From an uncultured Pseudomonadota bacterium (lineage in GTDB: Bacteria; UBA10199; CAZHVX01), in contig CAZHVX010000001.1 in assembly GCA_964536295.1 (NCBI GenBank), positions 1 through 51,869 of the forward strand: a stretch of DNA of 51,869 nt, read 5' to 3'. Positions 1,815-50,030 of the stretch are shown in pieces (within the stretch, counting starts at the first letter, position 1; every line of letters begins with the position of its first letter). The translations under genes and the position numbers were made by a program. The notes under the pieces were generated by a model. It was not told the DNA's origin, searched no databases, and saw nothing but the letters and a program-made list of their open reading frames with translations.

Positions 1815-1976
1815 ATGGCAAAGAGAAAGAAAAAAGCCGCAACGAAGAAAGTTGTGAAGAAAAAAGTTGCGAAGAAAAAAACAGCAAAAAAAGTTGTGAA
1901 GAAAAAAGTTGCGAAGAAAAAAACAGCGAAGAAAAAAATTGTTAAGAAAACAGTGAAAAGAAAAAAGAAAAAATAA
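1815..1976 (+). CDS. Lysine-rich histone H1-like / nucleoid-associated basic protein (53 aa)
   Basis: Strong SD (AAAGGAGGGG) 5 nt before the ATG at 1815. The protein is almost entirely K/A/V/T, with KKVVKKKVAKKKTA repeated. A terminator follows. The TTG start at 1773 in the ORF track is less likely. Confidence 0.7.
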   Translation: MAKRKKKAATKKVVKKKVAKKKTAKKVVKKKVAKKKTAKKKIVKKTVKRKKKK

Positions 1977-4114: not shown

Positions 4115-4256
4115 CTTTAAAGGGAGTGGTGGAAAATGCCTTTCGATGTCATCCCTGCGAAGGCAGGGATCCAGAACTTATTGAAATTACTGGATCCCTG
4201 CCTTCGCAGGGATGACAATTTTTGAAAAAACAGTATTTTCCACCACTCCCTTAAAG
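4115..4256. repeat. Family A composite palindromic element, copy A1 (outer GGGAGTGGTGGAAAAT arms plus inner GTCATCC...GGATCC hairpin)
   Basis: Outer arm 4115-4137 is the reverse complement of 4235-4256. Inner arm TGTCATCCCTGCGAAGGCAGGGATCCAG (4148-4175) is the reverse complement of 4190-4217. Confidence 0.9.
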
Positions 4257-4403: not shown

Positions 4404-5906
4404 ATGTTTACAACTAGTTACATATTCACAAGGGCGCGCTTTCTATTGCCAATACTGGTTTTCCTCCTGACACTCATTGCAAAACCAGTGATTGCACAGG
4501 ATTTAGAAAATGATGTCGTAGAATACAGGCTCCCGAATGGTATGTTATGGCTATTGTTAGATCGACCAGGGATACCGTCATTAGCCGGAACCGTCTCAGT
4601 AAAGGTCGGTGCACTGGATGATCCGAAGGGCAAGAGCGGCTTATCTCACATGCTTGAGCATATGGCCTTCAAGGGCACAAACCAGATAGGCACACACGAT
4701 TTTGCAAAGGAAGAACCAATATTAAAGAAAATACGTGAAGTTGGTGGCAAGCTTACACTTGAAAACCAGAAGGCAACCCCAGACAAGGAACTAATGGCAA
4801 AGCTACAGCAGGAGCTAACTGAACTGCAAAAAAGGCATAAACCATTGGTGTTCTCCGAGCTTGATCTTATTATGGATCGAAATGGTGCCGTTGGTAGCAA
4901 TGCCGTAACGAGTTATGATTATACAAGGTACTTTATAGAGATGCCTGGCCACAAGCTGGAGCTTTGGGCATACATAATGTCCGAAATGCTTTTTAATTCC
5001 GTTACGAGGGAATTCTACGTGGAAAGGGATGTGGTCCTGGAAGAAAGACGCCTACGAATAGATACCAGTCCATGGGGTGTTACATTTGAAAAGTTTTATA
5101 ATTTAGCCTTTGAAAAAAGTCCATTTTCTCATCTCCCCGGGGGAACGAAAAAGTCTATCGGCACATATACGATGGAGGATGTAGAAAAACTTCATAATGA
5201 ATATTATGTCCCTAGCAATATGGTAGGTGCGATAGTAGGAAATATCGACATAGACAAAACGAAAAAAATTCTAAAAAAGCATTTCGGAAAATATACTGCC
5301 GCAGCTACTATCAAAGAAGATCTGCCAGTGGAACCTAAGCAAACAGCGGAAAGGCGCGCCACCATTAAGTATGATGCCGAACCGAGGCTTTTAATAGGTT
5401 ACCATAAACCAAATCTTCCGCACCCAGACGATTACGTTTTTGATATTATCTATTATATACTTTGTGATGGAAGATCTTCACGTCTACATAAACGTCTTGT
5501 AGAAGAAGAAAAAATCGCCAGTAATTTTTACTGCGATCCATCTCATCCTGGAAATCGAGCAGACAATTTGATGGTTTTAATGGTTATACCTTACGAATCA
5601 AAATCGCCTGAAAGAATTGAAAAAACTATTTATGACGAAATAGAAAAACTCGGCTCAAGCTTAGTAAGTAAAAATGAGCTTCAAAAGGCCCTAAATAACA
5701 TACTGGCAAACTTCTATTTTGCAATTGAATCTAATGAGGATCTTGCGGAAACACTTGTAACATATCATACTCTCGTTGGTGACTGGAAATACCTGATTAC
5801 AAAACAAAAGATTTATGAACAAATAACACCAGAGGATATAAAAAGAGTTGTAAATAAATATATGATTTCATCTAACAGGACAGTAGTATGGCAGTTAAAA
5901 AAATAA
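4404..5906 (+). CDS. Secreted M16 (pitrilysin-family) zinc peptidase, catalytic subunit
   Basis: Signal peptide ending VIAQD. HMLEHMAFKGT contains the HxxEH zinc motif. Confidence 0.85.
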   Translation: MFTTSYIFTRARFLLPILVFLLTLIAKPVIAQDLENDVVEYRLPNGMLWLLLDRPGIPSLAGTVSVKVGALDDPKGKSGLSHMLEHMAFKGTNQIGTHDFAKEEPILKKIREVGGKLTLENQKATPDKELMAKLQQELTELQKRHKPLVFSELDLIMDRNGAVGSNAVTSYDYTRYFIEMPGHKLELWAYIMSEMLFNSVTREFYVERDVVLEERRLRIDTSPWGVTFEKFYNLAFEKSPFSHLPGGTKKSIGTYTMEDVEKLHNEYYVPSNMVGAIVGNIDIDKTKKILKKHFGKYTAAATIKEDLPVEPKQTAERRATIKYDAEPRLLIGYHKPNLPHPDDYVFDIIYYILCDGRSSRLHKRLVEEEKIASNFYCDPSHPGNRADNLMVLMVIPYESKSPERIEKTIYDEIEKLGSSLVSKNELQKALNNILANFYFAIESNEDLAETLVTYHTLVGDWKYLITKQKIYEQITPEDIKRVVNKYMISSNRTVVWQLKK

Positions 5907-7341: not shown

Positions 7342-7423
7342 TTTGTCATCCTCGCGAAAGCGGGGATCCAGAATATATAACTTATTGAAAAGACTGGATC
7401 CCCGCCTTCGCAGGGATGACAAA
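7342..7423. repeat. Family A palindromic element, copy A2 (inner hairpin only)
   Basis: TTTGTCATCCTCGCGAAAGCGGGGATCCAG ... CTGGATCCCCGCCTTCGCAGGGATGACAAA. The loop aacttattgaaaa resembles the A1 loop. Confidence 0.9.
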
Positions 7424-10738: not shown

Positions 10739-11251
10739 ATGAATATTAGAGATGAAATACGCGGTTCAATCGACCAAGTAGGGATATCCATACGTCAACT
10801 ATCAATACAAAGTGGTGTCAGGCGCCAAAGTATTATAAATTTTTTGAATGGGGGAAATATCCATTTAGATAATTTATCAAAGATACTAGAAGCACTTGAT
10901 TTGGATATTAAACTAATCAAAAAAACAAGGAATCAAAACCAATTAATTAAAGAACGTCTTTCAACCGACCCTACAAAAATATCAAAATTTTGCAAAAAAA
11001 ATAAAATAAATTTTCTTGCTGTTTTCGGATCCATACTGCGCAAGGATTTTACCAAAAAAAGTGATATCGATGTTTTGATCAAGCTAGACAAACCTATATC
11101 TTTTTTTGAACTATTCGAAATCGAAAAAGAACTTAAACAGCTATTCAAGACCGAGCACGAACTGGATGTGGTAACCGTTAATTCATTATCCCCGTTAATA
11201 AGGCAGGACGTACTGAATAATAACGAGGTTTTATATGAAAAAGCGTCCTGA
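10739..11251 (+). CDS. Fusion of an XRE-type HTH with a minimal nucleotidyltransferase (MNT antitoxin of the HEPN/MNT type VII TA family)
   Basis: N-terminal HTH (ISIRQLSIQSGVRRQSIINFLNG). C-terminal NTase motif (FGSILRKDFTKKSDIDVLIK ... LDVV). Confidence 0.75.
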   Translation: MNIRDEIRGSIDQVGISIRQLSIQSGVRRQSIINFLNGGNIHLDNLSKILEALDLDIKLIKKTRNQNQLIKERLSTDPTKISKFCKKNKINFLAVFGSILRKDFTKKSDIDVLIKLDKPISFFELFEIEKELKQLFKTEHELDVVTVNSLSPLIRQDVLNNNEVLYEKAS

Positions 11252-11573
11252 AATATTTTTCGATCATATGTTAATTGCTATTAACACCATAGAAAAATAT
11301 ATCCATGACTATAATTATAAAAAATTCATGGAAGATTCAAAAACAACAGACGCCGTTATTAGACAGCTGGAAATTCTGGGTGAAGCCGCTAGCAATATCC
11401 CGCTTAAAATTGTAATCGATTCACCGATTTCATGGCATTCTATAGTGGGAATGAGAAATCGATTGATTCATGATTATTTTGGGGTCGATTTGGAGATCGT
11501 GTGGAAAACAAGTAAGAAATCATTGGGTTCATTAAAAAAATACCTACAAACAAAACTAAGCACTAAGTTCTAA
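11235..11573 (+). CDS. HEPN-domain (DUF86) toxin
   Basis: RNRLIHDYF contains the Rx4H motif. About 110 aa. Overlaps the MNT stop by 17 nt. Confidence 0.8.
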   Translation: MKKRPEIFFDHMLIAINTIEKYIHDYNYKKFMEDSKTTDAVIRQLEILGEAASNIPLKIVIDSPISWHSIVGMRNRLIHDYFGVDLEIVWKTSKKSLGSLKKYLQTKLSTKF

Positions 11574-11576
11574 GTT

Positions 11577-13154
11577 CTATCTTCTCACATAAATATCCAT
11601 CCCATCCATATTGGCTTCGTATTCGTAATGCTGATCAACATATTCCTGAAGATAGGGAAATTTTTCGATCAAATAATTCTCATATCCATGTCGTTTGGCA
11701 ATTGCCGTATCCACAAAATAAACGGGTTTGTTTTTGTTGAAATCGTCAAACAACATCCTCCAGGCACCTTCGGTTGCCCAGTTTGAGGTTGTATACTTTG
11801 GATCCGATGAAAACTTAGAGCCGGCAATCCGCCCGGTTACCCAATCGCACCAGGTAAAACGGGATGCTGGTTTTCTGTCAGCGTAAAAGTAGATGGGTGT
11901 GGCAAATCCCCAGACAAAGATATGATCATCCACCGATGTTTTTTCCATAATATATCTGGCAACGGGGCGGTAATCATCGGGATTATCCTCACCGACCCAT
12001 GAATAAATTTGATTTTTTATCATTCGCGCACCAAAGAAGGCAACAGAGGGAAGCAGTATACCAAGCATAAACATGACGTACGCCCATTGCATGGCCTTTG
12101 GCTTCATTACGGGAAGCTTTATTAGAAATCTATCCACTTGATATGAAGCCAATATGCAAAGAGCTGGTAGCAGTTGAATAAAATAATGCCCGTAATATCT
12201 TCCGCCAATCGTTACAGGATAAATGCTGAACAAAAACCAGAAAAACAACACATATATGGCTGTTTGCTCTTTGGTTCTGTCGACTGAAATGAAAATATTC
12301 TTGAATAACCTTAGAATTTCACGCACACCAAAAAACCAAATTAAAAAAGTTGAGACAATAAAAGTGGAGGAGCGGACAAAGAATTTACGAAGGACATCAA
12401 TGACGGTTTTGCCGGCATCTATGTAGGCCATGCTCCCCTTGATGCTCCAAAAATAATAATCATCCAATACGCCCATCAGGTGCAAATGCAATAAATATAT
12501 AAGATACATGACGATAGCACCTGAGAAAAATATAGAGAATGCCCAAATCTTGGGTTTATTGAGTGTCTTTCGTAAGAACAGGGGACGAAAAATAAGCAGA
12601 TAGAATGCTATAACAAAAAGATTCATCCCTCCCTGATATTTAAAAAGAGCTCCAATCATCAGAAAAATACCACTCAAAAAAAGGAGCCATTTTTTACTAT
12701 GATCTTCCTCCCACTTTAGAAAATAAAAAATACTTACGGTAAGGGGCAACATCATCAATATTACAATGTTCGTTGAAATGAATTTAGGTATATAGGTGGT
12801 TGTAAAGATCACATAGAAAAGCGCCGCCAGCAATCCCGATCGCTCATTGTATAGATGCTTGCCGATTCTAAAGCAAAAGAGGGCGGTCACACCGACCCAA
12901 ATGGCTGTAAAGAAATGAATGGCGATCATGTTATTTTTGCCAAATATCCAAAAGATGACGGTGAAAAAGTAGTAAACGAAGAGGGGTTTCGTATCTACTG
13001 TGTCTATGTATGGTGATCCCCCATCAAGAAGCGTGTTGGCAAATACCGCAAATTGGGACTCATCAATATCCAGGATGGGATAAATGTAAGAAGGAATCCT
13101 TAAAATCACAGAAAGCAATAATATCCCTAAAAATATTTTTGTCGTTCTTTTCAT
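11577..13154 (-). CDS. GT-C fold glycosyltransferase (ArnT/PMT-like, polyprenyl-phosphate-sugar dependent)
   Basis: At least 10 TM helices. The first periplasmic loop carries DIDESQFA...DTKPL, the acidic DxD/E motif of ArnT/PMT_2 enzymes. Confidence 0.7.
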   Translation of the reverse strand: MKRTTKIFLGILLLSVILRIPSYIYPILDIDESQFAVFANTLLDGGSPYIDTVDTKPLFVYYFFTVIFWIFGKNNMIAIHFFTAIWVGVTALFCFRIGKHLYNERSGLLAALFYVIFTTTYIPKFISTNIVILMMLPLTVSIFYFLKWEEDHSKKWLLFLSGIFLMIGALFKYQGGMNLFVIAFYLLIFRPLFLRKTLNKPKIWAFSIFFSGAIVMYLIYLLHLHLMGVLDDYYFWSIKGSMAYIDAGKTVIDVLRKFFVRSSTFIVSTFLIWFFGVREILRLFKNIFISVDRTKEQTAIYVLFFWFLFSIYPVTIGGRYYGHYFIQLLPALCILASYQVDRFLIKLPVMKPKAMQWAYVMFMLGILLPSVAFFGARMIKNQIYSWVGEDNPDDYRPVARYIMEKTSVDDHIFVWGFATPIYFYADRKPASRFTWCDWVTGRIAGSKFSSDPKYTTSNWATEGAWRMLFDDFNKNKPVYFVDTAIAKRHGYENYLIEKFPYLQEYVDQHYEYEANMDGMDIYVRR

Positions 13155-14366: not shown

Positions 14367-16247
14367 ATGTGTGGAATTTGCGGCATAATTCACAAAGATT
14401 TATCAAAGCCTATTGATCAAAAAATCATTAGGGCCATGAGCGATTCGCTTCAACACCGCGGCCCAGATACCGAGGGTTTTCACATTGAAGAGGGCGTTGG
14501 CCTAGCAGTCAAGCGATTGGCTATCATCGATGTGCAAAATGGCAATCAGCCCGTATATAATAATGACAAATCAATTATAGCAATTGTTAACGGTGAAATT
14601 TATAATCACAAGGACTTAAGGAATAAACTTTCAGGAAAAGGAATTAGTTTTAGAAGTAACTCCGATGCCGAGGTTGTTCCGCACTTATACGAAAAGCATG
14701 GTATTGATTTTGCCTCCCATCTGAATGGAATGTTTGCAATTGCAATTTGGGATGCACGTGAAAGACAGCTAATCCTGGCTAGGGATAGAATGGGGCAGAA
14801 GCCATTATATTATACCACAATTAACAACTCACTTATCTTTGGATCAGAGCTGAAGGCCCTTATTGTTCATCCAGATTTCAAAAGAGATATTGATAGAGAG
14901 GCCTTGTCAAAATATCTGGCATATGAATATATCCCATCTCCAAAAACAATCTTTAAAAATACTTCAAAACTCGAAGCCGGCACATATCTCATATTTAAAA
15001 ATGGAACCATCACTATAAAAAAATATTGGGATATACCAATAAAAGATTTTAACTCCTACAAAGGTTCATTTAACGATGCAAAGGCAGAACTGTTAGAGTT
15101 GCTTGCCAATTCCGTTAAAAGGCGCTTGATGAGTGACGTTCCGCTGGGTATCTTTTTAAGTGGAGGTGTTGATTCGTCAAGCATAACCGCGTTAATGTCA
15201 AAATATACGGATCCTGAAAGGATCAACACATTCACAATTGGTTTTCATGAAAAATCATTTGACGAATCTTCTTATGCAAGGTTGGTGGCCTCAAAATACA
15301 AAACCAATCATAAAGAAAAATACTGCACACCTGGAACGATGCTTGATGTTGTTCCAAAAATTGTAGATTTCTTGGATGAACCACTTGGTGATGCATCCAT
15401 AATTCCAACGTATCTCCTTTCACAATTCACGAAAGAACACGTAACGGTTGCATTATCAGGGGATGGGGGGGATGAACTTTTCGCCGGCTATCCAACCTTT
15501 CAGGCAGCAAAATTAATAAAATATTATGAGCTGCTGCCAAAGAGTATGCGTAAAAATTTTCTTGAACCGCTGATAAATAAATTACCGGTTTCAACCGACA
15601 ACTTTAGTTTCGATTTCAAACTTAAACGCTTTATCAATAGTTCAAATATCATTATGCCTCATCGACACTTTGCGTGGATGGGTTCCTTCAACAAATTTGA
15701 TCAGGCCAGCTTATTGATCGACAACTCTTTTAATGATCACATATACGAGGATGTAGATAGATACATCACAGACTCACAAACGGATAACACCGATTTACAG
15801 GCCCTCTATCTTTACAAGAAACTCTATCTCCAGAACGATCTATTAACAAAGGTGGATAGAGCCTCCATGGCGTGCTCCCTTGAAGCCAGGGCCCCGTTTT
15901 TGGATCATGAACTTGTGGAGTTTGTCTCAAAACTTCCGTATGAATGGAAAATTAAGGGGTTAACGACCAAATATATCCTCAAAGAGGCTATGAGGCCCTA
16001 CCTGCCAAAAACTATTATTAAAAGAAGCAAAAAAGGCTTTGGTATCCCGGTAGCCAAATGGCTAAAAGGCCCATTAAAAGAATTGACCCTTGACCTATTA
16101 GCCCCAGATAAATTAAAAAGAGAGGGCCTTTTCAATGTCGATTATGTCCAAAAACTTATTGATGAACACTATCGGGGTAGTGTAGATAGGCGTAAAAAGC
16201 TTTGGACGTTATTGATCTTCGAAATGTGGCTTTCAAAATGGATGTAA
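14367..16247 (+). CDS. asnB: Asparagine synthase (glutamine-hydrolysing) family amidotransferase
   Basis: MCGI N-terminal Cys nucleophile (Ntn domain) and the SGGVDSS PP-loop motif. Confidence 0.85.
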   Translation: MCGICGIIHKDLSKPIDQKIIRAMSDSLQHRGPDTEGFHIEEGVGLAVKRLAIIDVQNGNQPVYNNDKSIIAIVNGEIYNHKDLRNKLSGKGISFRSNSDAEVVPHLYEKHGIDFASHLNGMFAIAIWDARERQLILARDRMGQKPLYYTTINNSLIFGSELKALIVHPDFKRDIDREALSKYLAYEYIPSPKTIFKNTSKLEAGTYLIFKNGTITIKKYWDIPIKDFNSYKGSFNDAKAELLELLANSVKRRLMSDVPLGIFLSGGVDSSSITALMSKYTDPERINTFTIGFHEKSFDESSYARLVASKYKTNHKEKYCTPGTMLDVVPKIVDFLDEPLGDASIIPTYLLSQFTKEHVTVALSGDGGDELFAGYPTFQAAKLIKYYELLPKSMRKNFLEPLINKLPVSTDNFSFDFKLKRFINSSNIIMPHRHFAWMGSFNKFDQASLLIDNSFNDHIYEDVDRYITDSQTDNTDLQALYLYKKLYLQNDLLTKVDRASMACSLEARAPFLDHELVEFVSKLPYEWKIKGLTTKYILKEAMRPYLPKTIIKRSKKGFGIPVAKWLKGPLKELTLDLLAPDKLKREGLFNVDYVQKLIDEHYRGSVDRRKKLWTLLIFEMWLSKWM

Positions 16248-16248
16248 T

Positions 16249-16318
16249 GGCTGAGAGATTTTAGAACTTAGCTGAGAGAATAAATAACTCTCAGCCCTCA
16301 GCTAAGCTCTCTCAGCTT
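16249..16318. repeat. Family B palindromic repeat (GCTGAGAG ... CTCTCAGC arms), copy B1
   Basis: GCTGAGAG aataaataa CTCTCAGC, with extra tandem CTCAGC arms. Ends 18 nt before the leuS ATG. Confidence 0.85.
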
Positions 16319-16334: not shown

Positions 16335-18836
16335 ATGACAATACGGGCATATGATCCAAAAACGATAGAATTAAAGTGGCAGGATTTTTGGGAAAAGAAG
16401 AAAACCTTCAAAGTAAAACATCTCAAGGATAAGAAAAAGTATTACATCCTTGAAATGCTACCATATCCGTCAGGCGCACTGCATATGGGACACGTTCGCA
16501 ACTATTGTCTAGGGGACGTTCCTGCACGATATTACATGATGAAGGGTTACAACGTTCTTCATCCAATAGGGTGGGATGCGTTTGGAATGCCCGCGGAAAA
16601 TGCCGCTATCAAACATAAAGCACATCCGGCAGATTGGACAAAGCAGTGCATCGAGACAATGCGCGGTCAATTAAAGGCCCTTGGATATTCCTATGATTGG
16701 GATCGCGAAATCGCCACATGTGAGCCGGAGTATTATAAGTGGGAACAGTTGATCTTCACGAAACTCTTCGAAAAGGGTTTGGCATATAAAAAAGCCTCTT
16801 TGATCAATTGGTGCGATAAGTGCGCAACCGTTCTTGCAAATGAACAGGTTGAGGGGGGCTATTGCTGGAGATGTTCTTCTGTTGTTCAGCAAAGACCCAT
16901 GGAACAGTGGTATTTAAAGATCACCGATTATACCGAAGAACTGTTGTCGGATATTGATGATAAGCTTCAGGGGTGGCCGGATCGTGTAACGGTAATGCAA
17001 AAGGAGTGGATCGGAAAGAGCCACGGCACCTGGATCGAATTTCTGATCGAGGGCGAGGAAGAACCTTTAAAGATATTTACAACGCGCCCTGACACGCTCT
17101 TCGGCGTAACTTTTATGTCACTGGCTTGTGAACATCCACTGGTAATGAAACTGGCAAAAAAATATGGCAAAGAAAAGGAAATGTCTAATTTTATTCAAAA
17201 GGCTGCCAAAATCGATCGCATGAATCGCCTGGAGGAGAACTACGAAAAAGAGGGCGTCTTTACGGGTGCGTATTGCATCAATCCAGCCACCCATGACAAG
17301 GTCCCAATCTTTGCAGCCAACTTCGTTTTAATGGAATATGGAACAGGTGCAGTCATGGCCGTCCCGGGTCATGATCAGAGGGATTTTGAATTTGCCAAAA
17401 AGCATAAGCTTCCAATCAAAGTAGTTATTCAACCAACATGTCATCCTGAGCAAAGCGAAGCCCGCCTTGCCGCGAGACAGGGATCCAGTGGCAACACCCT
17501 GGATTCTTCACTAGATCCACTAACCATGATAGAAGCATATGAGGGCGAAGGCGTTATGGTAAATTCCGGCGAATTCAATAACCTTCAGAACGTTAAAGGA
17601 ATCGCTGAGATTACAAAATACCTTGAAATACACGGCGTTGGAGGCCCAACCGTAAACTATAAGTTGAAGGATTGGTGCGTGTCCAGACAGCGGTATTGGG
17701 GTGCACCGATTCCAATTATTTATTGCGACAAATGCGGAACGGTTCCCGTTCCTGAAAAAGATCTGCCGGTAGAATTGCCACGAGATGTCGAATTTACAGG
17801 AGAAGGGGGCTCTCCGCTAACCAAGGTTAAAGAATTCGTAAATTGTAGGTGCCCAAAGTGTAAGGGGAACGCAAGACGCGAAACGGACACAATGGACACC
17901 TTTGTGGAATCCAGTTGGTATTTCTTACGCTACGCATCCCCGCACTATAAAAAGGGCCCTGTTGACCCCAAAGAGATGAAATTTTGGCTACCCGTGGATC
18001 AATACATCGGAGGAATTGAACACGCCGTGGGTCACCTGATGTATTGCCGTTTTTGGACCAAAATTTTAAGGGATTTGGGGTATCTCGAATTTGCGGAACC
18101 CGTTAAAAATCTCATGACACTTGGAATGGTCATTAAAGACGGCGTCAAGATGAGCAAATCCAAGGACAATGTTGTTTCCCCTGATGAAATGATCGAAAAA
18201 TACGGCGCCGACACTACTCGTATTTTCAGTTTATTTGCAGCTCCTCCCACAAAGGATCTTGAATGGAACGAGCAGGGGGTCGAAGGATCGCATCGTTTCT
18301 TGGGACGCGTTTGGCGCATTGTGCAAGGGTATCTTGAAACGAAAAAACACGCAGATAAAAACTCCGAGGAACTTAACAAGTGGATGCACAAGACCATCAA
18401 GCGTGTGACAGATGATATCGAACGTTATCACTTCAACACAGGCATTTCGGCAATCATGGAGTATATTAACTTCCTCACACAGCAAGAGCCCAAGGATTTG
18501 ACAAAAGAAGCAATTGAGGCGCTGATACTTTTAATATCGCCATTTGCTCCGCATATAACTGAAGAGATGTGGAAATTGACGGGACACAAAAAATCAATAG
18601 TCACTGCAAGTTGGCCATCATATGACAAAAACGCCCTCGTTGAGGATTTGATGCTTATAGTTGTTCAGATAAATGGCAAGCTTCGCGACAAACTGGATGT
18701 GCCTGTTGATATGGATCAGAAAGAGATTAAGAAATTAGCTCAGGACTCGAATAAGGTAAGGTCCCATACCGACGGCAAAAATATTGTTAAAGTAATCTAC
18801 GTACCAAAGAAGTTGGTAAATATTGTTGTGAAATAA
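16335..18836 (+). CDS. leuS: Leucyl-tRNA synthetase
   Basis: HMGH (HIGH-type) and KMSKS motifs, a CP1 editing domain and zinc-finger cysteines. Carries an in-frame repeat insertion at 17438-17509. Confidence 0.95.
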   Translation: MTIRAYDPKTIELKWQDFWEKKKTFKVKHLKDKKKYYILEMLPYPSGALHMGHVRNYCLGDVPARYYMMKGYNVLHPIGWDAFGMPAENAAIKHKAHPADWTKQCIETMRGQLKALGYSYDWDREIATCEPEYYKWEQLIFTKLFEKGLAYKKASLINWCDKCATVLANEQVEGGYCWRCSSVVQQRPMEQWYLKITDYTEELLSDIDDKLQGWPDRVTVMQKEWIGKSHGTWIEFLIEGEEEPLKIFTTRPDTLFGVTFMSLACEHPLVMKLAKKYGKEKEMSNFIQKAAKIDRMNRLEENYEKEGVFTGAYCINPATHDKVPIFAANFVLMEYGTGAVMAVPGHDQRDFEFAKKHKLPIKVVIQPTCHPEQSEARLAARQGSSGNTLDSSLDPLTMIEAYEGEGVMVNSGEFNNLQNVKGIAEITKYLEIHGVGGPTVNYKLKDWCVSRQRYWGAPIPIIYCDKCGTVPVPEKDLPVELPRDVEFTGEGGSPLTKVKEFVNCRCPKCKGNARRETDTMDTFVESSWYFLRYASPHYKKGPVDPKEMKFWLPVDQYIGGIEHAVGHLMYCRFWTKILRDLGYLEFAEPVKNLMTLGMVIKDGVKMSKSKDNVVSPDEMIEKYGADTTRIFSLFAAPPTKDLEWNEQGVEGSHRFLGRVWRIVQGYLETKKHADKNSEELNKWMHKTIKRVTDDIERYHFNTGISAIMEYINFLTQQEPKDLTKEAIEALILLISPFAPHITEEMWKLTGHKKSIVTASWPSYDKNALVEDLMLIVVQINGKLRDKLDVPVDMDQKEIKKLAQDSNKVRSHTDGKNIVKVIYVPKKLVNIVVK
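17438..17509. repeat. Truncated family A element (copy A3) inserted in frame in leuS
   Basis: By eye, about 48 of the first 51 nt match the reverse complement of copy A5 (30037-30145). 72 nt equals 24 codons, translated as CHPEQSEARLAARQGSSGNTLDSS. Confidence 0.85.
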
Positions 18837-18843
18837 TTTTTTC

Positions 18844-19058
18844 GACAGGATTAACTAGATTATGAATCAAAATTCGAAATTAAAATATCGAAAAACGAAA
18901 TGGTTCGACAGGCTCACCACCCTGAGAGAGTGTAAGCGAGTCGAAGGACAACTACGAAATAAGAAATTCGAATTTCGTGCCTTAAATTTCTTATTTGTTT
19001 CGATATTCGGATTTCCAGTTTCGGATTTAGTTCAAAATAATCCTGTAAATCCTGTCAG
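18844..19058. repeat. Composite family C element, copy C3 (GACAGGATTAAC ... AATCCTGTAAATCCTGTC) with a TTCGAA-rich core and a family A-type sub-module
   Basis: Terminal motifs are shared with C1, C2 and C4. The core aattcgaaat/cgaatttcg strings resemble 43170-43290. Positions 18920-18948 share the CCTGAG..GAGTCGAAGG module. Confidence 0.8.
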
Positions 19059-19073
19059 ATAAAAAATTTATTT

Positions 19074-20078
19074 ATGAAATTGACCATTCAACAACTTGAC
19101 CAGGAACTCCGTTCAAAGAAATTAAGGCCGGTTTATTTTATCTATGGAACGGAACACCACCTCTTAAATACCGCAGTTGAAAAGATCAAGGAAGCCGTTT
19201 TGGGAAAGACACCCCAGGATATGAGCTTCGATAGGTTTTCCGGTAAGGAAACTTCATTTGACAGAATAGTTGATGCGGCCCGCACTTTATCTATGTTTGG
19301 AGGACAAAAGCTTATCCTGGTTAAGGATGCTTCAAATATCAAAAAGGGCAACATTGAAGCGCTTCTTAATTTCCTTAAAAAACCGGAACCAAACAGTGTT
19401 ATGGTTTTGGTTGCAGAAAAAATTGATGGTAGGACAAAATTCGGCCAGGTTGTAAATAAGAATGCGGCGGTCCTTGAATGCAAACCATTGTATGAAAATC
19501 AACTTCCATCGTGGATACATATGGAGGCCCAGACAAAACAAAAGCGCTTTTCCCAGCAGGCCGCAATTTACCTTGCAGACATAGTTGGAAACGATTTGGG
19601 ACAGTTATCACAGGCGATAGAAAAGATAATTTTGTATGTCGGAAAAAAGCCCATTATCGATGTTGAAGATGTTGAAAAGGTTATCTCTGACACATCACAC
19701 AAAAGCGTTTTTAATTTCACCAATTCGTTGGGCAAAAAAGACAGAAGGGGATCGTTGAAACTTTTAAACAACCTGATGCGAAATGGCGAGATCCCATTGA
19801 TGGTATTTTCAATGGTAACAAAACATTTCAGGTTGTTACTAAAAGCGAAGGGGCTACTACAAAGACGCTTAGGGGAACACGAACTGGCTCAAGGCCTAAA
19901 GGTTCACCCATTTTTCGTTAAGGATTATGTATTTCAAAGTAATTTATTTTCTTTGGATGAACTCAAAACAAAATTTCGTGATCTTTACGAAACAGATCGA
20001 GCGCTAAAATCAAGCAAACTCCCACGTCATTTAATCCTTGAAAAACTTATTCTGGAAACTTGTAGAAAACAGGGTTAG
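19074..20078 (+). CDS. holA: DNA polymerase III delta subunit
   Basis: About 334 aa with the typical N-terminus (L.PVYFIYG.E..L). It sits downstream of leuS, as in many Gram-negatives. Confidence 0.8.
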   Translation: MKLTIQQLDQELRSKKLRPVYFIYGTEHHLLNTAVEKIKEAVLGKTPQDMSFDRFSGKETSFDRIVDAARTLSMFGGQKLILVKDASNIKKGNIEALLNFLKKPEPNSVMVLVAEKIDGRTKFGQVVNKNAAVLECKPLYENQLPSWIHMEAQTKQKRFSQQAAIYLADIVGNDLGQLSQAIEKIILYVGKKPIIDVEDVEKVISDTSHKSVFNFTNSLGKKDRRGSLKLLNNLMRNGEIPLMVFSMVTKHFRLLLKAKGLLQRRLGEHELAQGLKVHPFFVKDYVFQSNLFSLDELKTKFRDLYETDRALKSSKLPRHLILEKLILETCRKQG

Positions 20079-20374: not shown

Positions 20375-20408
20375 TTTCCACTCCTTACGATTACATTTGA
20401 AACAGGAT

Positions 20409-20572
20409 AAACGCTGATAAACTCTGATGTTTTATTTAATCGGTATCTATCCTGCTATTTATAAAAGATTCACCTAAAACAACTCTTCAGGTATTATTTA
20501 ACCAATTTCCCTTCAAAACACAAACAAAAACCAAAATCAGCGTTCATCTGCGTTAATCCTGTTGCGTTTTTT
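20409..20572. repeat. Family C element, copy C5
   Basis: The right end aaaatcagcgttcatctgcgttaatcctgtt is the exact reverse complement of the left end of C4 (43131-43161). The left end shares gtttatcagcgtttatcc with the right end of C4. Confidence 0.85.
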
Positions 20573-20653
20573 CAATACATCTCCCTCAATTTGAGGTGCT
20601 TCTCTATAGGAAAACAATTGATATGTCAAGAATTTTACTGTATCCTGCCCGGG

Positions 20654-20728
20654 AGAACTTAGAACTTAGCTGAGAGTTATCTATAACAGACCTTTTCTCT
20701 CAGCTCTCAGCTAAGATCTCTCAGCTAG
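20654..20728. repeat. Family B palindromic repeat, copy B2
   Basis: agaacttagaacttaGCTGAGAG ... CTCTCAGCtCTCAGCtaagatCTCTCAGC. The last arm ends 9 nt before the murJ ATG. Confidence 0.85.
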
Positions 20729-20734
20729 CACAAT

Positions 20735-23168: not shown

Positions 23169-23183
23169 CTTGCTCTCCTTGAA

Positions 23184-23248
23184 AGAACTTTGAACTTAGC
23201 TGAGAGCTGAGCGTTTTTTCTCTCAGCTAAGATCTAAGCACTAAGTAC
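23184..23248. repeat. Family B palindromic repeat, copy B3
   Basis: agaactttgaacttaGCTGAGAGCTGAGCgttttttCTCTCAGCtaagatctaagcactaag. It overlaps the mazG stop codon and lies about 15 nt upstream of the Cys-rich gene start. Confidence 0.8.
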
Positions 23249-24014
23249 TAGTTTTAATAAACTGCCAAACCTCTTCCATCTCCTCAACTGTCATCTTCTT
23301 TAAGTCAAGCCCACGCTTTTTGATTTCATCTTCCATCTTGTGAAAACGTTCAACAAACCTATTGTTCGCCTTGCGCAGGGCCTCCTCGGGATTGATATCC
23401 AAAAAACGTCCCGCGTTTGCTAGACAAAATAGGATATCACCGAACTCGTGTTCGATCTCTTTTTTAGGCAAACCTTTTTGTTGCGCTTCATGAAGCTCGT
23501 GAACTTCTTCTTCAAGTTTTTCTAAAATACCTTCGGTATCGTCCCAGTCAAAACCAACTCGCGCTGATTTCTGACCCAGGCGATATGCCTTTAAAAGGGA
23601 TGGGAGAACCTTCGGCACTCCACCCAAAAGGGATTTTTTACCTTCCTTGATCTTGATATGCTCCCAGTTTTGCAAAACCTCTTTAGAACTTTTCACCTCT
23701 ACTTCACCGAAGACATGAGGATGCCTTCGAATCAATTTTTCACATATGGAGTCTATTGCATCATCAATCGTGAACTTTTTTTCTTCAGCCGCAAACTGCG
23801 CATAAAACACAATCTGCAAGAGCATATCCCCAAGTTCCTCTTTAGTATTATCCCAATCGCGATTGTCGATAGCATCAAAAAGCTCATGCACCTCCTCAAG
23901 GGTATAGGCCTTGATGTCATCTATGCTTTGTTCACGATCCCACGGGCAACCGCCGGGAGCCCTCAGTTTGGCCATTATATCGACCAGTTTTTGAAATTTT
24001 TCATTAGTTTTCAT
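23241..24014 (-). CDS. mazG: Nucleoside triphosphate pyrophosphohydrolase MazG
   Basis: Tandem MazG domains with CPWDREQ, EE..E...A and EE.GD motifs. Start moved to the ATG at 24014. Confidence 0.85.
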   Translation of the reverse strand: MKTNEKFQKLVDIMAKLRAPGGCPWDREQSIDDIKAYTLEEVHELFDAIDNRDWDNTKEELGDMLLQIVFYAQFAAEEKKFTIDDAIDSICEKLIRRHPHVFGEVEVKSSKEVLQNWEHIKIKEGKKSLLGGVPKVLPSLLKAYRLGQKSARVGFDWDDTEGILEKLEEEVHELHEAQQKGLPKKEIEHEFGDILFCLANAGRFLDINPEEALRKANNRFVERFHKMEDEIKKRGLDLKKMTVEEMEEVWQFIKTST

Positions 24015-28352: not shown

Positions 28353-30020
28353 ATGAAAAAATATTTATTAGCAATAATTTCCGGCATCATCACGATGTTC
28401 TCGTTTCCAACCGTATTATTTGGCTGGCATGCGCCAGAATTGGGTTTCCTGGCGTTTATTTCGCTGGTCCCATTGTTTGTAGCAATAAATAATGTGCGGC
28501 CACGAAAGGCCTTTTGCCTAGCCTTTGTTACAGCCGCAATATGTTATTCTGGTTCGCTTTATTGGATCTATCGTGCGATGAACACCTATGGGAACCTTCC
28601 ATCGGTGGCAAGCGTTGCCGTTTTGGTTATCTTAATAATAATTATTTCGGCCTATATTGCCATTGCTCCAATGTTATCCAGATGGGTAAGCGAACGATCC
28701 AACATCCCTATGCTCATCTCACTCCCTATATTCTGGGTAATCTGTGAACTCTCCAGAAACTACATACCCTGCAACGGTTTCCCCTGGGCCAACCTTGCAA
28801 TGTCCCAGTATAGTCATACAACTATAATTCAAATCGTGGATCTCATTGGAATCTATGGCCTGATGTTTATCCTGGTGTGGGTTAACCAATTTATTGCTGA
28901 ACTGACCATTTTTTGCAAAGGAAATCAAGGGTGTGTCATTCTGAGCAAAGCGAAGAATCTCATGAAATCAATTGTAGGCAGGGGATCCTTCGTCCGCTCA
29001 TCGCGAACTCAGGATGACAATCCAATCTGTACCAATTTGTTATCCAAGAGTGTCGTTACACTTTTAATATTAACCACAGTTGTCGTCTATGGTATCTGGA
29101 GAAGCAACGACATTCAAAAACAGCTATCAAAGTTAACCCCTGTAAAAATCGCTATTTTGCAGGGAAACATCCCACAAGAAGAAAAACAAGATCCCTCAAT
29201 GAAAATTGAAGTTTTTAATAAGTATAGAAGGATGTTAAAACAAGCCACAAATGCAGATATCGAACTTGCTATATGGCCGGAAACCGCCTATCCATGGATC
29301 GTTAGAAGGGATCTGCAATTTCTCCCCGAAAAGCATCTTGGCCTATCGGACATCGGTTCACCATTTCCATTTAATTTAATTGGCGTTGTCGCATATGATG
29401 ACAATGGTGGTGATGATAGAACAATTTACAATAGCGTAATGCTGACCGACAGAAATGGAATGATATTGGATTTTTACGATAAGACACACCTGGTACCATA
29501 CGGAGAGTACGTTCCATATAAAAAGGTTTTGTTTTTTCTTAAAAAACTTGTATCTGCAATAGGTACATTTGAAACTGGCAAAACGCTGGAGCCACTGAAT
29601 TATGGCTTTCACAGATTTGGCAATCTTATCTGTTACGAGGATATCTTTCCCGAAATATCGCGCAAGACAACATTACTTGGCGCCGAATTTCTAGTAAACA
29701 CCACAAATGACGCATGGTATGGTGTTTCATCCGCTCCCTATCAACATTTGGCACTATCCGTATTTCGGGCGGTTGAAAATAGAAGGTATCTTGTAAGATC
29801 GACAAATACTGGGATATCAGCAGTGATCGATCCAATCGGACAAATAAACATGCAATCCGACATCTTCACCGACGCCCTAATTGTCAGCTACGTTGGTGCC
29901 GGCAACATCGATAGCGTTTACACGCGCCTTGGAGATTGGTTTGCATATGGATGTGTGCTGTATGGATTGTTCTTAATTGTAATAACAATAAGAAAAAGAA
30001 TGCGCGATACTAGATGTTAG
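28353..30020 (+). CDS. lnt: Apolipoprotein N-acyltransferase
   Basis: N-terminal multi-TM domain plus a CN-hydrolase domain (WPE, NLICYE). Carries an in-frame repeat insertion at 28933-29019. Confidence 0.9.
   Translation: MKKYLLAIISGIITMFSFPTVLFGWHAPELGFLAFISLVPLFVAINNVRPRKAFCLAFVTAAICYSGSLYWIYRAMNTYGNLPSVASVAVLVILIIIISAYIAIAPMLSRWVSERSNIPMLISLPIFWVICELSRNYIPCNGFPWANLAMSQYSHTTIIQIVDLIGIYGLMFILVWVNQFIAELTIFCKGNQGCVILSKAKNLMKSIVGRGSFVRSSRTQDDNPICTNLLSKSVVTLLILTTVVVYGIWRSNDIQKQLSKLTPVKIAILQGNIPQEEKQDPSMKIEVFNKYRRMLKQATNADIELAIWPETAYPWIVRRDLQFLPEKHLGLSDIGSPFPFNLIGVVAYDDNGGDDRTIYNSVMLTDRNGMILDFYDKTHLVPYGEYVPYKKVLFFLKKLVSAIGTFETGKTLEPLNYGFHRFGNLICYEDIFPEISRKTTLLGAEFLVNTTNDAWYGVSSAPYQHLALSVFRAVENRRYLVRSTNTGISAVIDPIGQINMQSDIFTDALIVSYVGAGNIDSVYTRLGDWFAYGCVLYGLFLIVITIRKRMRDTRC
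28933..29019. repeat. Family A element (copy A4) inserted in frame in lnt
   Basis: GTGTCATTCTGAGCAAAGCGAAGAATC ... CTCAGGATGACA terminal inverted repeats. 87 nt equals 29 codons, translated as CVILSKAKNLMKSIVGRGSFVRSSRTQDD. Confidence 0.85.
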
Positions 30021-30036
30021 ATACTGGATGTTGGGG

Positions 30037-30145
30037 TGTCATTCTGATCCTGAGCGAGTGAAACGAGTCGAAGGAGAAGAATCCAGCGTATAACCTGGAT
30101 CCCTGCCTCGCGGCAAGGCGGGCTTCGCTATACTCAGGATGACAT
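30037..30145. repeat. Family A palindromic element, copy A5 (full length, intergenic between lnt and prfB)
   Basis: GTGTCATTCTGA ... CTGGATCCCTGCCTCGCGGCAAGGCGGGCTTCGCTATACTCAGGATGACAT. Confidence 0.9.
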
Positions 30146-34071: not shown

Positions 34072-34281
34072 ATGACATACGGCACGATTTCACCAAAATA
34101 TCAGGTTGTTATTCCCAAAGAGATCCGTGAACAGATCAGTGTAAAACCCGGCCAGCGCCTTATGATTATCGCAAAGGATAATGTGATTTACATGGTCCCC
34201 GAGGCATCTCTTAAGGATTTAAAGGGGCGCTTTAAGGGGATGTCCATTGATAACCTAAGGGATGAGGATGATCGCATATGA
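34072..34281 (+). CDS. vapB: AbrB/SpoVT-family antitoxin (VapB/MazE-like)
   Basis: The PKYQVVIPKEIRE swapped-hairpin motif. 69 aa. Overlaps the PIN gene by 4 nt (ATGA). Confidence 0.8.
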   Translation: MTYGTISPKYQVVIPKEIREQISVKPGQRLMIIAKDNVIYMVPEASLKDLKGRFKGMSIDNLRDEDDRI

Positions 34282-34652
34282 TTATTATAGATTCATCCGC
34301 CTGGATTGAATTTTTGTCGGGTGGCAAAAAAGCTGGGGTGCTTGAAAAATATTTCAAGCCCTCGAATAAAATAATTATCCCTTCAATTGTTATCTACGAG
34401 GTTTACAAAAAAATCAAATCAGAAAAGGGCGAATCGGAGGCCGTGTTTATAATTGCACAGATGGAAAGGCTTGCGAGTGATGTTGTTGAGATAGATCATC
34501 CATTGGCAGTCCTTGCTGCAGATCTAAGCATACAAAAGAAACTCCCAATGGCAGATGCAATGATATACGCCGTTGCAATCCATTTTGGCGCCACTATAAT
34601 CACATTGGATAAGCACTTCAAAGATTTGGAGTTTGCGAAGTGCTTTGGATAA
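34278..34652 (+). CDS. vapC: PIN-domain ribonuclease toxin VapC
   Basis: Acidic quartet in PIN positions: IIDSS (D6), YEV, MADAMI and TLDKHF. Confidence 0.85.
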   Translation: MIIIDSSAWIEFLSGGKKAGVLEKYFKPSNKIIIPSIVIYEVYKKIKSEKGESEAVFIIAQMERLASDVVEIDHPLAVLAADLSIQKKLPMADAMIYAVAIHFGATIITLDKHFKDLEFAKCFG

Positions 34653-36318: not shown

Positions 36319-37548
36319 ATGAATCCATCATCATTTATTGCCAAAAGATATTTTAAGACACAGGGAAACCAACCCTTTAGCAGGTTTTTAACCTTTGTTG
36401 CCTGCACGGGTGTTGGCCTTGGCGTTGCGGCACTTATTATAGTTCTGTCTGTAATGAACGGTTTCACACTCGATCTCGAAAATAAACTACTGGGTTTTAA
36501 TTCCCATATCACGATCCACACAAACACAGCAGATCAGAAAGAAATTAATTCATTCATAAATGAAATAGACAACCTTGATGGTATAAGAACTGTTACCAAG
36601 ACAATGGAGGGGGAGGCCATCGCCCAATCTGCATTCTGGGGAGACACCTCCGCTATTGGTATCAAGGTGCGAGGGATAGAACCAAGTTTCTTTGGTACAA
36701 TGAAGGCACAATTCTTCATTGGTGAATCTTACGATCAAGGAATGCTACACAGTAAAAAGAACAAGGTCATCCTCGGTCATGAACTTGCCGGAGAATTAGG
36801 CGTTCACCCCGACCTAATGGAAAACGTAAAACTAAGTTATCCATTTGGAGAAATAACTCCTACCGGTGATTTCATCCCTTCATCCAAAGAAGTGGGGCTA
36901 ATTGGAGTATTCAAAAGCGGATTTTTTGAATATGACAGCAAATATGCCTTAATCAATTTACCGGAGGCCAAATCACTATTTGGGCCAATGGCTGAATTCA
37001 CGATACACATCTGGACAAAGAATCAGAACAACTTGTTAAACGTTAAAGAAGCAATACAATACGTTATGAATCCTACATGGAAAATTCATACGTGGGATGA
37101 AACAAATAAAAAACTTTTTTCAGCACTTCGTCTGGAAAGAATTGGAATGTTTGTCGTTCTATCTCTCATCATAATCATTGCCGCATTTAGTATCGTTGGA
37201 ATCATTCTAATGCGAGTTTTTCGTAAACGTAAAGATATCGCAATCCTGCAAACGGTTGGTTTTAATCCAAGAATGATAAGAACGATTTTTTTAACTGAAG
37301 GTGCCTTCATAGGATTAACGGGATCCATAGCCGGGTTAATGGTTGGTTTAATAATAATATTGGCCCTAAAACGATGGCCGATTACATTGCCAGATTCATA
37401 TTATTTAAGTTATTTGCCGGTTAACATTAATCCGGTTTTTATTGGAATCATCGTTTTAATTGGAATTGCTGCAGCGATAATTGCTACCTTGTATCCTGCA
37501 TCGCGAGCAGCAAAAATAAATTTGGTTAGGTTGTTGAGATATGAATGA
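36319..37548 (+). CDS. lolC: Lipoprotein-releasing system permease, LolC/LolE family (first paralog)
   Basis: MacB/FtsX topology: one TM helix, a periplasmic domain, then three TM helices. The N-terminus FIAKRYF...VMNGF is typical. Start moved to the ATG at 36319. Confidence 0.8.
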   Translation: MNPSSFIAKRYFKTQGNQPFSRFLTFVACTGVGLGVAALIIVLSVMNGFTLDLENKLLGFNSHITIHTNTADQKEINSFINEIDNLDGIRTVTKTMEGEAIAQSAFWGDTSAIGIKVRGIEPSFFGTMKAQFFIGESYDQGMLHSKKNKVILGHELAGELGVHPDLMENVKLSYPFGEITPTGDFIPSSKEVGLIGVFKSGFFEYDSKYALINLPEAKSLFGPMAEFTIHIWTKNQNNLLNVKEAIQYVMNPTWKIHTWDETNKKLFSALRLERIGMFVVLSLIIIIAAFSIVGIILMRVFRKRKDIAILQTVGFNPRMIRTIFLTEGAFIGLTGSIAGLMVGLIIILALKRWPITLPDSYYLSYLPVNINPVFIGIIVLIGIAAAIIATLYPASRAAKINLVRLLRYE

Positions 37549-37550
37549 AA

Positions 37551-37630
37551 CTAGAGCTTAGTGCTTAGAATTTAGCTGAGAGGTCTACTATATAGCAAAA
37601 CTCTCAGCTCTCAGCTCTCAGCCAAGCTCT
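37551..37630. repeat. Family B palindromic repeat, copy B4
   Basis: tttaGCTGAGAGgtctactatatagcaaaaCTCTCAGCtCTCAGCtCTCAGC. Ends 15 nt before the GTG of the next gene. Confidence 0.85.
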
Positions 37631-43111: not shown

Positions 43112-43127
43112 AACTATTATGGTAAAA

Positions 43128-43369
43128 CGAAACAGGATTAACGCAGATGAACGCTGATTTTTGTAAATAACATTCGAAACACGAAACAAATTCGAATATC
43201 TAAATTCGAATGTTCAAAACTCGTGTTTCAGTTTTGGGTAATTCGAATTTCGAGCTTGTTTCGAGTTTCGGGATTCGGATTTTGGATTTAAAAAGAAGCA
43301 TCCGTGTTTATCAGCGTTTATCCCCCGCCTGCCATCCTAAAAAGAAATATGATGGCGGGCAGGTGTTTC
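43128..43369. repeat. Composite family C element (copy C4) joined to the family D hairpin
   Basis: The left end is the exact reverse complement of the right end of C5. The TTCGAA-rich core resembles that of C3. The hairpin CCGCCTGCCATC...GATGGCGGGCAGG (43324-43363) is repeated at the window start. Confidence 0.85.
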
Positions 43370-46750: not shown

Positions 46751-46955
46751 GGGAGTGGTGGAAAATACGTTTTGTTGACTCTTGTGTCATTCTGAGTCCG
46801 CCAAACCTGCCTCGCGTTGTTCAGCAAGGCGGGGGCAGACGAAGAATCCAGTAAAATCAATTTGTTAACTCTGGATCCCTCATGGAGTTTATCCTGAGCG
46901 AACGTCAATGAGTCGAAGGGTTCAGGATGACAAAACGCATTTTCTACCACTCACC
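46751..46955. repeat. Family A composite element, copy A6 (outer GGGAGTGGTGGAAAAT arms plus a long inner element)
   Basis: Outer arm GGGAGTGGTGGAAAATACGTTTTG (46751-46774) pairs with CAAAACGCATTTTCTACCACTCACC (46931-46955). The inner element runs TGTGTCATTCTGAG ... TTCAGGATGACA. Confidence 0.9.
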
Positions 46956-49776: not shown

Positions 49777-49888
49777 CTATTTAGATTTAAACAAAATTCC
49801 TAGACATACGTGTATGGATATGTATATTTAGAATAGGGTGAATTTTTTACATAATTTTTTTACACACAATCCGTGCTGGTTTGTGTAT

Positions 49889-50030
49889 AAAGGGAGTGGT
49901 GGAAAATACGTTTTGTCATCCTGAATTCGCCAAGGCGAATGAAGCCTGCCTGCCGCAGGCAGGGATCCAGTGCTAACAAATTGGATCCGCTGGATTCTTC
50001 GCCCGCCTCGGGCGGACTCAGAATGACACA
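49889..50030. repeat. Family A composite element, copy A7 (left outer arm present, right outer arm missing)
   Basis: AAAGGGAGTGGTGGAAAATACGTTTTGTCATCCTGA ... GCAGGCAGGGATCCAG ... CTGGATTCTTCG ... CTCAGAATGACAC. Confidence 0.9.

Follow-up and report, generated by a model that had tools for sequence, protein, structure and literature searches.

The stretch of DNA considered here (the "window") comprises 51,869 nucleotides of contig CAZHVX010000001.1, from an uncultured bacterium. The region is one of housekeeping genes (bamA, skp, lolCDE-like genes, lysS, prfB, lnt and spoT among them), and at positions 16335..18836 of the forward strand it carries leuS, an open reading frame (ORF) of 833 amino acids that encodes leucyl-tRNA synthetase (LeuS, or LeuRS). 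Within leuS, at 17438..17509 (+), lies a 72-nt segment that matches a palindromic repeat dispersed through the window, and it is this segment, and its probable origin as a truncated copy of that repeat, that is treated below. The host gene is readily recognized: its product matches LeuRS of T. thermophilus (E = 8e-254) and of E. coli (E = 1e-245), and the HMGH, KMSKS, TTRPDT (editing motif) and GHDQRD sequences all fall on invariant alignment columns. Orthology is sound, because the gene order asnB-leuS-holA-rpsT-murJ is shared by the window and the loci of the LeuS homologues P0033, P0014, P0009 and P0036. Both leuS and lnt, which encodes apolipoprotein N-acyltransferase and is discussed further on, are generally regarded as essential housekeeping genes.

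The initial annotation, made by eye, had described the leuS segment as near-identical to the reverse complement of an intergenic copy, and formal alignment bears this out. The nearest full-length member of the family is a 108-nt inverted dimer at 30037..30144 (-), in the intergenic region of lnt and prfB; positions 17438-17488 are complementary to 30095-30145 at 94% (48 of 51 nt), and beyond a spacer a further 11 of 11 nt agree. A 49-mer query allowing up to three mismatches found two sites only in the window, and none of 100 shuffles gave two matches. The same annotation had taken 17438-17509 to be 24 codons; the segment and its peptide stand, but the phase was off by one base, as a Thr codon ends with 17438 and the in-frame peptide CHPEQSEARLAARQGSSGNTLDSS is read from codons 17439-17510.

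When the leuS segment, the reverse complement of the 30037-30144 copy and three other copies were aligned with MAFFT, the first two proved to be organized alike: a TGTCATCCTGAG head comes first, then a GC-rich arm that ends in GGGATCCAG and, beyond a spacer, CTGGATTCTTC. The first repeat unit in leuS is complete (17439..17488, +), with its TGTC tag at 17439-17442, the GC-rich arm, and GGGAT followed by the CCAG tail at 17485-17488. A 10-nt spacer, TGGCAACACC, occupies 17489..17498 (+) and corresponds to 8 nt, GTTATACG, in the reference copy; the 11 identical nucleotides CTGGATTCTTC at 17499..17509 (+) then begin a second, inverted unit. The last 39 nt of that unit, TGTC tag included, are missing and no GRATGAC terminus is found downstream, while the intergenic reference copy runs 39 nt past CTGGATTCTTC to reach its second terminus, ...TCAGAATGACA / ...CTCAGGATCAGAATGACA. 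The right terminal repeat had been noted as missing and the reading frame as preserved, and both observations hold. Host sequence borders the insert as ...CAACCAAC on the left and ACTAGATCC... on the right, and from the translation the tryptic peptides ...VVIQPTCHPEQSEAR and QGSSGNTLDSSLDPLTMIEAYEGEGVMVNSGEFNNLQNVK would cross its junctions. The net gain in LeuS is 21 residues (63 nt) against 72 nt that match the repeat, with the frame open and no stops; about 9 nt of host linker would therefore have been lost or overwritten.

As RNA the segment is predicted to fold into two hairpins (-28.5 kcal/mol, z = -3.6), with the spacer TGGCAACACC as the loop of a GGGAUCCAG...CUGGAUUCU hairpin. No terminator-like (intrinsic) site was found on the sense strand inside leuS, and Rfam and tRNA scans of the window gave no matches. 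An intein or intron was considered and rejected, the segment being only 72 nt long, without such motifs and without a match to an Rfam family. Microhomology between CTGGATCC of the repeat and CTNGATCC of the host Leu-Asp-Pro codons was likewise rejected as the cause of truncation; it does not explain the deletion, because both sequences are still present, side by side.

The repeat family was delimited in the window with a head-motif scan, which returned 23 matches against 11.5 +/- 3.5 expected. Thirteen of these are repeat termini, every one of which reads TGTC, and they resolve into seven copies, six with both termini and the leuS copy with one. Six of the seven are inverted dimers with the tags outermost; the leuS copy is such a dimer minus most of its second unit. 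Two short dimers (no strand assigned to these or to the long intergenic copies) lie at 4147..4217, intergenic, and at 7344..7421, between convergent genes; long intergenic copies occupy 46785..46932 (148 nt, upstream of spoT/relA) and 49914..50028 (115 nt); and a second intragenic copy, a full-length dimer with both TGTC termini, sits in frame in lnt at 28934..29019 (+). The unit of the short copies (4147, 7344) reads TGTC-ATCCCTGC-GAAG-GCAGGGAT-CCAG, that is, a 4-base tag, an 8-bp stem starting from A-T, T-A, a 4-nt loop and a CCA tail. Longer copies, that in leuS included, still have the TGTC tag, AT..AT at the ends of the stem and a CCAG tail, with interiors that are enlarged and mosaic; the tail is present in the leuS, 4147, 7344, 30095-30145, 46785 and 49914 units. 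Only one or two of the six frames are stop-free in any complete copy, which gives no hint of a special adaptation of these repeats to coding.

Traces of a mobilizing system were sought at several levels. On either side of the six complete copies there is no common direct repeat that would represent a target-site duplication, no transposase or RAYT (REP-associated tyrosine transposase, Y1) domain was detected by a Pfam scan of the 31 window ORFs, and no transposase appears in the gene tables of the related loci that were inspected. A scan of a genome collection with the arm pattern returned one unrelated Rhodothermaeota contig only, and a scan of metagenomes with a 22-nt core returned four contigs that share just the inner hairpin module within ATTGCGAGC...GCAATC units; neither collection apparently includes the genome from which the window comes. 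Queried with the 34-aa insert region, phmmer returned one match among 1.84 billion representatives (P0121) and no other decorated enzyme. P0121 is a predicted protein of 268 aa with five tandem ...RCHPERSEGSLKMRARGNSLFCPTLVSMEA... copies (RCHPERSEGSL repeats), probably a spurious ORF called where related TGTCATCCTGAGCGAAGCGAAGGATC units lie clustered in a different organism. It was also observed that three of the intergenic TGTC dimers are nested in an outer inverted repeat, AAGGGAGTGGTGGAAAATAC ... GTATTTTCCACCACTCCCTT, at 4117-4137/4235-4255, 46753-46775/46930-46952 and 49887-49916 (the left arm alone is clear at 49887); the nesting reflects either a composite element or the use of one repeat as a target by another.

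Comparison with other LeuS proteins bears on the age of the insert. A protein search over 5.8 billion sequences was used to collect the best 120 LeuS (the window's own included), which were aligned; apart from the window's own protein, the homologues returned are at most 74% identical. None of the other 119 has the insert residues, the nearest (P0002, 74% identity) included, which at this site reads VVIQP-KNTA-LDP, encoded by CAA CCC AAG AAC ACT GCA CTT GAT CCG. Between the invariant columns V364 and A401 the spacing is 15 aa in 86 of the 120 sequences and 36 aa in the window LeuS, the longest of all. The insert thus lies where it had first been placed, between the PIKVVIQP and LDP..M..AYEG blocks, in a variable linker that follows the VVIQP strand of the CP1 editing domain and is short in orthologues, and the peptide, as first supposed, is not ancestral. 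The alignment shows an insertion into leuS that postdates the split from the nearest sampled relative.

An AlphaFold2 (AF2) model of the window LeuS, built from 85 aligned sequences, has a mean predicted local distance difference test score (pLDDT) of 90.2 and superposes on E. coli LeuRS with a template modelling (TM) score of 0.89. Confidence falls to 51 at residues 371-380 and 47 at 381-390, the neighbouring blocks scoring 88 and 89, and the insert sits between strands 365-367 (VVI of VVIQP) and 406-408 of the model. T. thermophilus LeuRS has an alignment gap at the insertion point, and the inserted peptide is hydrophilic (grand average of hydropathy, -1.0). At the level of prediction, then, the insert appears compatible with the fold, as surface or loop, and the earlier suggestion that the 24 residues form a loop agrees with this low-pLDDT stretch in an otherwise confident LeuRS model. 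The enzyme is presumably active, and the loop would be exposed, at a distance from both the tRNA and the editing pocket.

The insert is present in independently assembled DNA. The stretch occurs in several public groundwater metagenome runs, for which Logan contigs, not raw reads, were compared. A contig from run X1 (sample S1) covers 16900-17787 with 0 differences, and the identical contigs of runs X4/X5 (S4/S5) cover 17399-17644, also with 0 differences; both junctions of the insert are crossed in each case. A contig from run X3 (S3) covers 17175-17572 with four substitutions and no gaps, and represents a slightly diverged strain (about 1% divergence) in which the insert is identical. Contigs from at least three independent groundwater samples/assemblies therefore span the insert, which is not an artefact. 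Contigs from run X2 end on either side of it, as assemblers do at repeats. No contig was found that joins the flanks without 17438-17509, the joints listed being cross-matches of other organisms' leuS.

Other coding sequences in the window and in related loci also carry palindromes. The lnt ORF (28353-30020) encodes a protein with LNT_N and CN_hydrolase domains (Pfam), and the repeat copy at 28934-29019 falls between the two, where it is read as CVILSKAKNL...TQDDN. It adds about 30-33 basic residues (CVILSKAKNLMKSIVGRGSFVRSSRTQDDN), exactly opposite a 33-aa gap in the Lnt orthologue of L004; the lnt and leuS copies are read in different frames of the repeat. Among LeuS homologues, P0033 has in the same loop a complete short dimer, AGTCATCCCCGCGAAAGCGGGGAC...GATCCCCGCCTTCGCGGGGATGACA, read as SHPRESGDLVNSLDPRLRGDD; its arms and those of the intergenic copies in the window agree at 92-96% identity. 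In P0014 and P0020 the loop contains one unit each, tagged TGTC or CGTC (CGTC in P0020). The palindrome of P0009 (CCCCTCCTTTGTAAGGAGGGG...) comes from a different family and shares 89% identity with the insert that P0036 LeuS carries in a second CP1 loop. GC-rich perfect palindromes occupy both CP1 loops of P0061 LeuS. The palindromic inserts of LeuS orthologues were located at L002 6548-6613, L004 1170-1208, L005 2482-2520, L006 11093-11182, L007 10706-10784, and L013 about 2360-2420 and 2780-2847. In L007, the lipA gene for lipoyl synthase (ORF 4755-5696) was also seen to contain an in-frame palindrome, LPFVRGGKGGVDHDLPPLTPPYKGGG, at 5356-5427, of the same family as the P0009/P0036 LeuS inserts and on the same contig as the P0009-related insert.

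The two CP1 loops that bear these unrelated palindromes align to residues ~238 and ~365 of the window LeuS. The closest relative of each carrier is usually insert-free, the sites of insertion lie a few codons apart, and carriers also vary in how much host linker they retain; because of this, the inserts are best regarded as independent events filtered by the tolerance of the loops. A shared ancestral insert, or a precise target site, is contradicted by the same varying positions and insert-free relatives. Recurrence of REP (repetitive extragenic palindrome) insertion at one site has been seen before, in recB of Xanthomonas (PMC3733652). It is tempting to go further and to regard the loops after ~238 and ~365 as recurrent landing pads for unrelated REP-like palindromes across an uncultured groundwater clade, with about a quarter of the 120 nearest orthologues lengthened in one loop or in both and a rate of insertion beyond what loop tolerance would give; we offer this only tentatively and consider it rather unlikely. 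If true, it would imply a target preference of the mobilizing machinery, or selection for editing-domain surfaces or for intragenic mRNA hairpins.

The family may be compared with several known classes of small repeats, of which the CGTC-tagged REPs are the closest. Families CGTC-1 to -4 were described by Di Nocera, De Gregorio and Rocco (2013, BMC Genomics 14:522; PMC3733652). They are marked by a CGTC tag (TGTC or CCTC in many), an 8-9 bp stem from A-T, T-A, a loop of 4-5 nt and a CCA tail, and they occur mostly as inverted dimers, with intragenic units and no associated transposase (PMC3733652). RPE-6 of Rickettsia conorii (RPE, Rickettsia palindromic element) is CGTC-1 and RPE-4 is CGTC-4, and the dRS3 of Neisseria belongs to the same class (PMC3733652). 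Intragenic units encode 20-30 aa in frame, with peptides such as VIPAKAGI, SFPRKRES, CYSRESRNP and ...LDSRFRGND, and the genes hit include those for tRNA synthetases and the apolipoprotein N-acyltransferase gene of Sphingopyxis alaskensis (PMC3733652).

The termini in the window bear TGTC, a listed variant of the tag, and the P0020 unit bears CGTC itself. Both short copies (4147-4217 and 7344-7421) show every structural mark of the class; the leuS unit shows the tag, the stem ends (AT..AT) and the tail, and its copy amounts to one-and-a-fraction units, the second tag being deleted. Arms of the long window copies measure about 50 nt, against about 25 nt in the class. No transposase is encoded in the 52-kb window or listed in the gene tables of the related loci. 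The peptides are like those of the class in kind: CHP... recalls CYSRESRNP, VI... recalls VIPAKAGI, and ...LDPRLRGDD recalls ...LDSRFRGND. The species that were surveyed do not include the host, which belongs to an uncultured lineage from groundwater; its LeuS relatives bear the label "Deltaproteobacteria bacterium".

An analogy with Rickettsia palindromic elements had been drawn at the outset and gains support from these marks, which place the family in the class of RPE-4 and RPE-6 (PMC3733652). RPE-1 is about 105-150 bp long and specific to Rickettsia, with obligate intracellular hosts (Ogata et al. 2000, Science 290:347, and 2002, Genome Res 12:808, as summarised in PMC10969869 and PMC3733652), and expression of RPE-bearing proteins has been shown in Rickettsia (PMC10969869, PMC3733652). 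Like the repeats of the window, RPEs occupy intergenic sites as well as in-frame sites within conserved housekeeping genes, the in-frame insertion is absent from orthologues (as seen here for leuS and lnt), and the added peptide is thought to be compatible with the fold, which here is a prediction. The likeness is one of architecture and description, not of alignment with an RPE consensus, and the host is not Rickettsia. GTAG REPs and REPINs, which are mobilized by RAYT enzymes (IS200/IS605-like Y1), are also short tagged hairpins, often inverted dimers, that leave no target-site duplication; the tag here is TGTC, not GTAG, and no RAYT gene occurs in the window or the related loci inspected, yet they offer a plausible model for mobilization in trans of the TGTC family. 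[quoted passage not shown] MITEs have defined terminal inverted repeats and usually target-site duplications, and most of their reported ORF overlaps lie at gene ends rather than in internal loops of conserved enzymes (PMC10969869, PMC3184786, PMC5896051).

Taken together, we consider it likely, and with considerable confidence, that the leuS segment comes from a small palindromic repeat, non-autonomous and here truncated, whose complete form is an inverted dimer of REP-like hairpins with TGTC tags, in the CGTC REP/RPE-4/-6 class, and that the segment is a translated and tolerated passenger. Several points weigh against this. The leuS unit is 50 nt long, with an interior about 30 nt longer than in CGTC REPs, and lacks the 8-9 bp stem and 4-5 nt loop of that class; no mobilizing enzyme is encoded in the 52 kb; and no RNA runs containing leuS were found. 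The designation "surface loop" rests on the predicted model and alignment gaps, not on tRNA or editing-site coordinates. An insert-free allele, if rare, could escape the contigs, which do not prove fixation. Finally, a second leuS might exist beyond the visible genome, which amounts to 52 kb only.

That last point would allow the leuS of the window to be a decaying or redundant copy, the work being done by a second, insert-free gene elsewhere; this is highly improbable, given a full-length ORF with all motifs on invariant columns, a confident AF2 model, and a gene that lies in the conserved asnB-leuS-holA-rpsT-murJ context of its orthologues. Hardly any credence can be given to a repeat-induced chimera that placed repeat sequence into leuS during assembly: breakage of the run X2 contigs on both sides of the insert is what would be expected at a repeat, but the X1, X3 and X4/X5 contigs, from different samples, pass both junctions gap-free and the leuS ORF remains open and in register. 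Nor is there any real prospect that the 24 residues belonged to LeuS first, by ancestry or by convergence, and that the intergenic copies were derived from the gene. Nothing favors this except the shared sequence itself, whereas the residues are missing from 119 homologues, the leuS segment bears the terminal tag and hairpin architecture of the family, and six other copies at unrelated loci have both termini.

Two further alternatives, each improbable, concern the nature and the fate of the repeat. It might be a classical MITE and not a hairpin of the REP type, with a DDE transposase that recognizes its terminal inverted repeats and moves it. In four of the six complete copies the outer 12 nt (TGTCATYCTGAG / CTCAGRATGACA) are indeed inverted at both ends (in the two short copies only TGTCATCC is shared), and a size range of 71-148 nt is in keeping with a MITE. 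However, no target-site duplication accompanies any of the six complete copies, every arm forms a tagged stem-loop of its own that has a CCA tail, as in the CGTC REPs, single arms stand alone in P0014 and P0020 LeuS, and no insertion sequence with these ends is present in the window. Alternatively, the insert might have been exapted, the CP1 loop or the mRNA hairpin providing a selected function (in editing, tRNA handling, partner contact or a translational pause). Exaptation would explain the repeated insertion into LeuS loops of the clade, where at least five DNA-verified independent palindromes occur at the same loop (P0001, P0009, P0014, P0020 and P0033) and more at the second CP1 loop; it could also claim in its favor the identity of the insert in the diverged strain of run X3 and the stability of the RNA fold given above. 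Tolerance of the loops fits better than a specific function, because the inserted sequences come from different families and encode unrelated peptides, the insertion points shift by a few codons, and the same families have also entered lnt and lipA; moreover, the nearest relatives of the carriers do without an insert, and the insert itself is predicted to be disordered or of low confidence.

On the preferred reading of a tolerated REP-like passenger, a copy of the repeat landed in the leuS linker after the lineage had split from its nearest sampled relative. Mobilization was most likely of the REP type, by a hairpin-recognizing enzyme acting in trans and leaving no target-site duplication. What survives is a complete first unit with the spacer and the opening 11 nt of the second; the copy was probably truncated, and about 9 nt of host linker lost, through later deletion or imprecise insertion. 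Transcribed and translated with the gene, the insert would form a hydrophilic, probably flexible and exposed excursion from an enzyme in which aminoacylation and editing presumably still work, with an effect that may be neutral or nearly so. Selection would have removed insertions that were out of frame, contained stops or disrupted the core, leaving survivors in loops.

An event of this type is already known from Rickettsia and other bacteria, and knowledge of how such elements work is unchanged by it. What is gained is a clean, independently assembled case of a selfish palindromic repeat inside a core enzyme of translation (its own translation being presumed), in a lineage that looks free-living, to judge from the groundwater samples and ordinary housekeeping genes, which shows that "protein-coding palindromes" also occur outside Rickettsia and outside reduced genomes. 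Two housekeeping genes, leuS and lnt, carry copies within 52 kb, and in related genomes other palindromes occupy the same LeuS loops and lipA; such repeats may therefore keep supplying this clade with variation in loop length. The most interesting additions are that two LeuRS CP1 loops are used recurrently across a groundwater clade and that lnt contains a second copy in frame. There is also a practical side, in that repeat-derived peptides (CHPEQSE..., VILSKAKNL..., ..LDPRLRGDD) can mislead annotation, alignment and marker-gene phylogeny in metagenome-assembled genomes, and such repeats also break assemblies inside genes, as in run X2.

The window contains other repeats besides the TGTC family. 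A further dispersed intergenic family is built on CTCTCAGCTAAG / CTTAGCTGAGAG motifs, at 16243-16311, 20646-20732, 23176-23254, 37535-37582 and 11556-11589, with one cluster directly between asnB and leuS. A short repeat, TTTTTGACAGGATTAACTGGATTA, occurs with its complement at 1591-1620, 2833-2932, 18832-18862 and 19035-19074, and borders several genes, among them leuS (at its 3' end) and holA (at its start). Distant intergenic regions share inverted matches of 41 nt (95%) and 33 nt (85%), the sites being 20405-20437 and 20530-20570 against 43291-43323 and 43124-43164, and there is a perfect 30-nt direct repeat (6-35 = 43340-43369). A small ORF at 1815-1976 (+), composed of 15-nt tandem repeats, encodes an extremely Lys-rich protein of 53 aa (MAKRKKKAATKKVVKKKVAKKKTAKK...) that resembles a histone-H1-like or nucleoid-associated basic protein. 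Genes of toxin-antitoxin type lie amid the housekeeping genes at 10739-11573 and 34278-34652, and comprise a nucleotidyltransferase (MNT, with a helix-turn-helix) and HepT-like HEPN pair and a PIN-domain protein.

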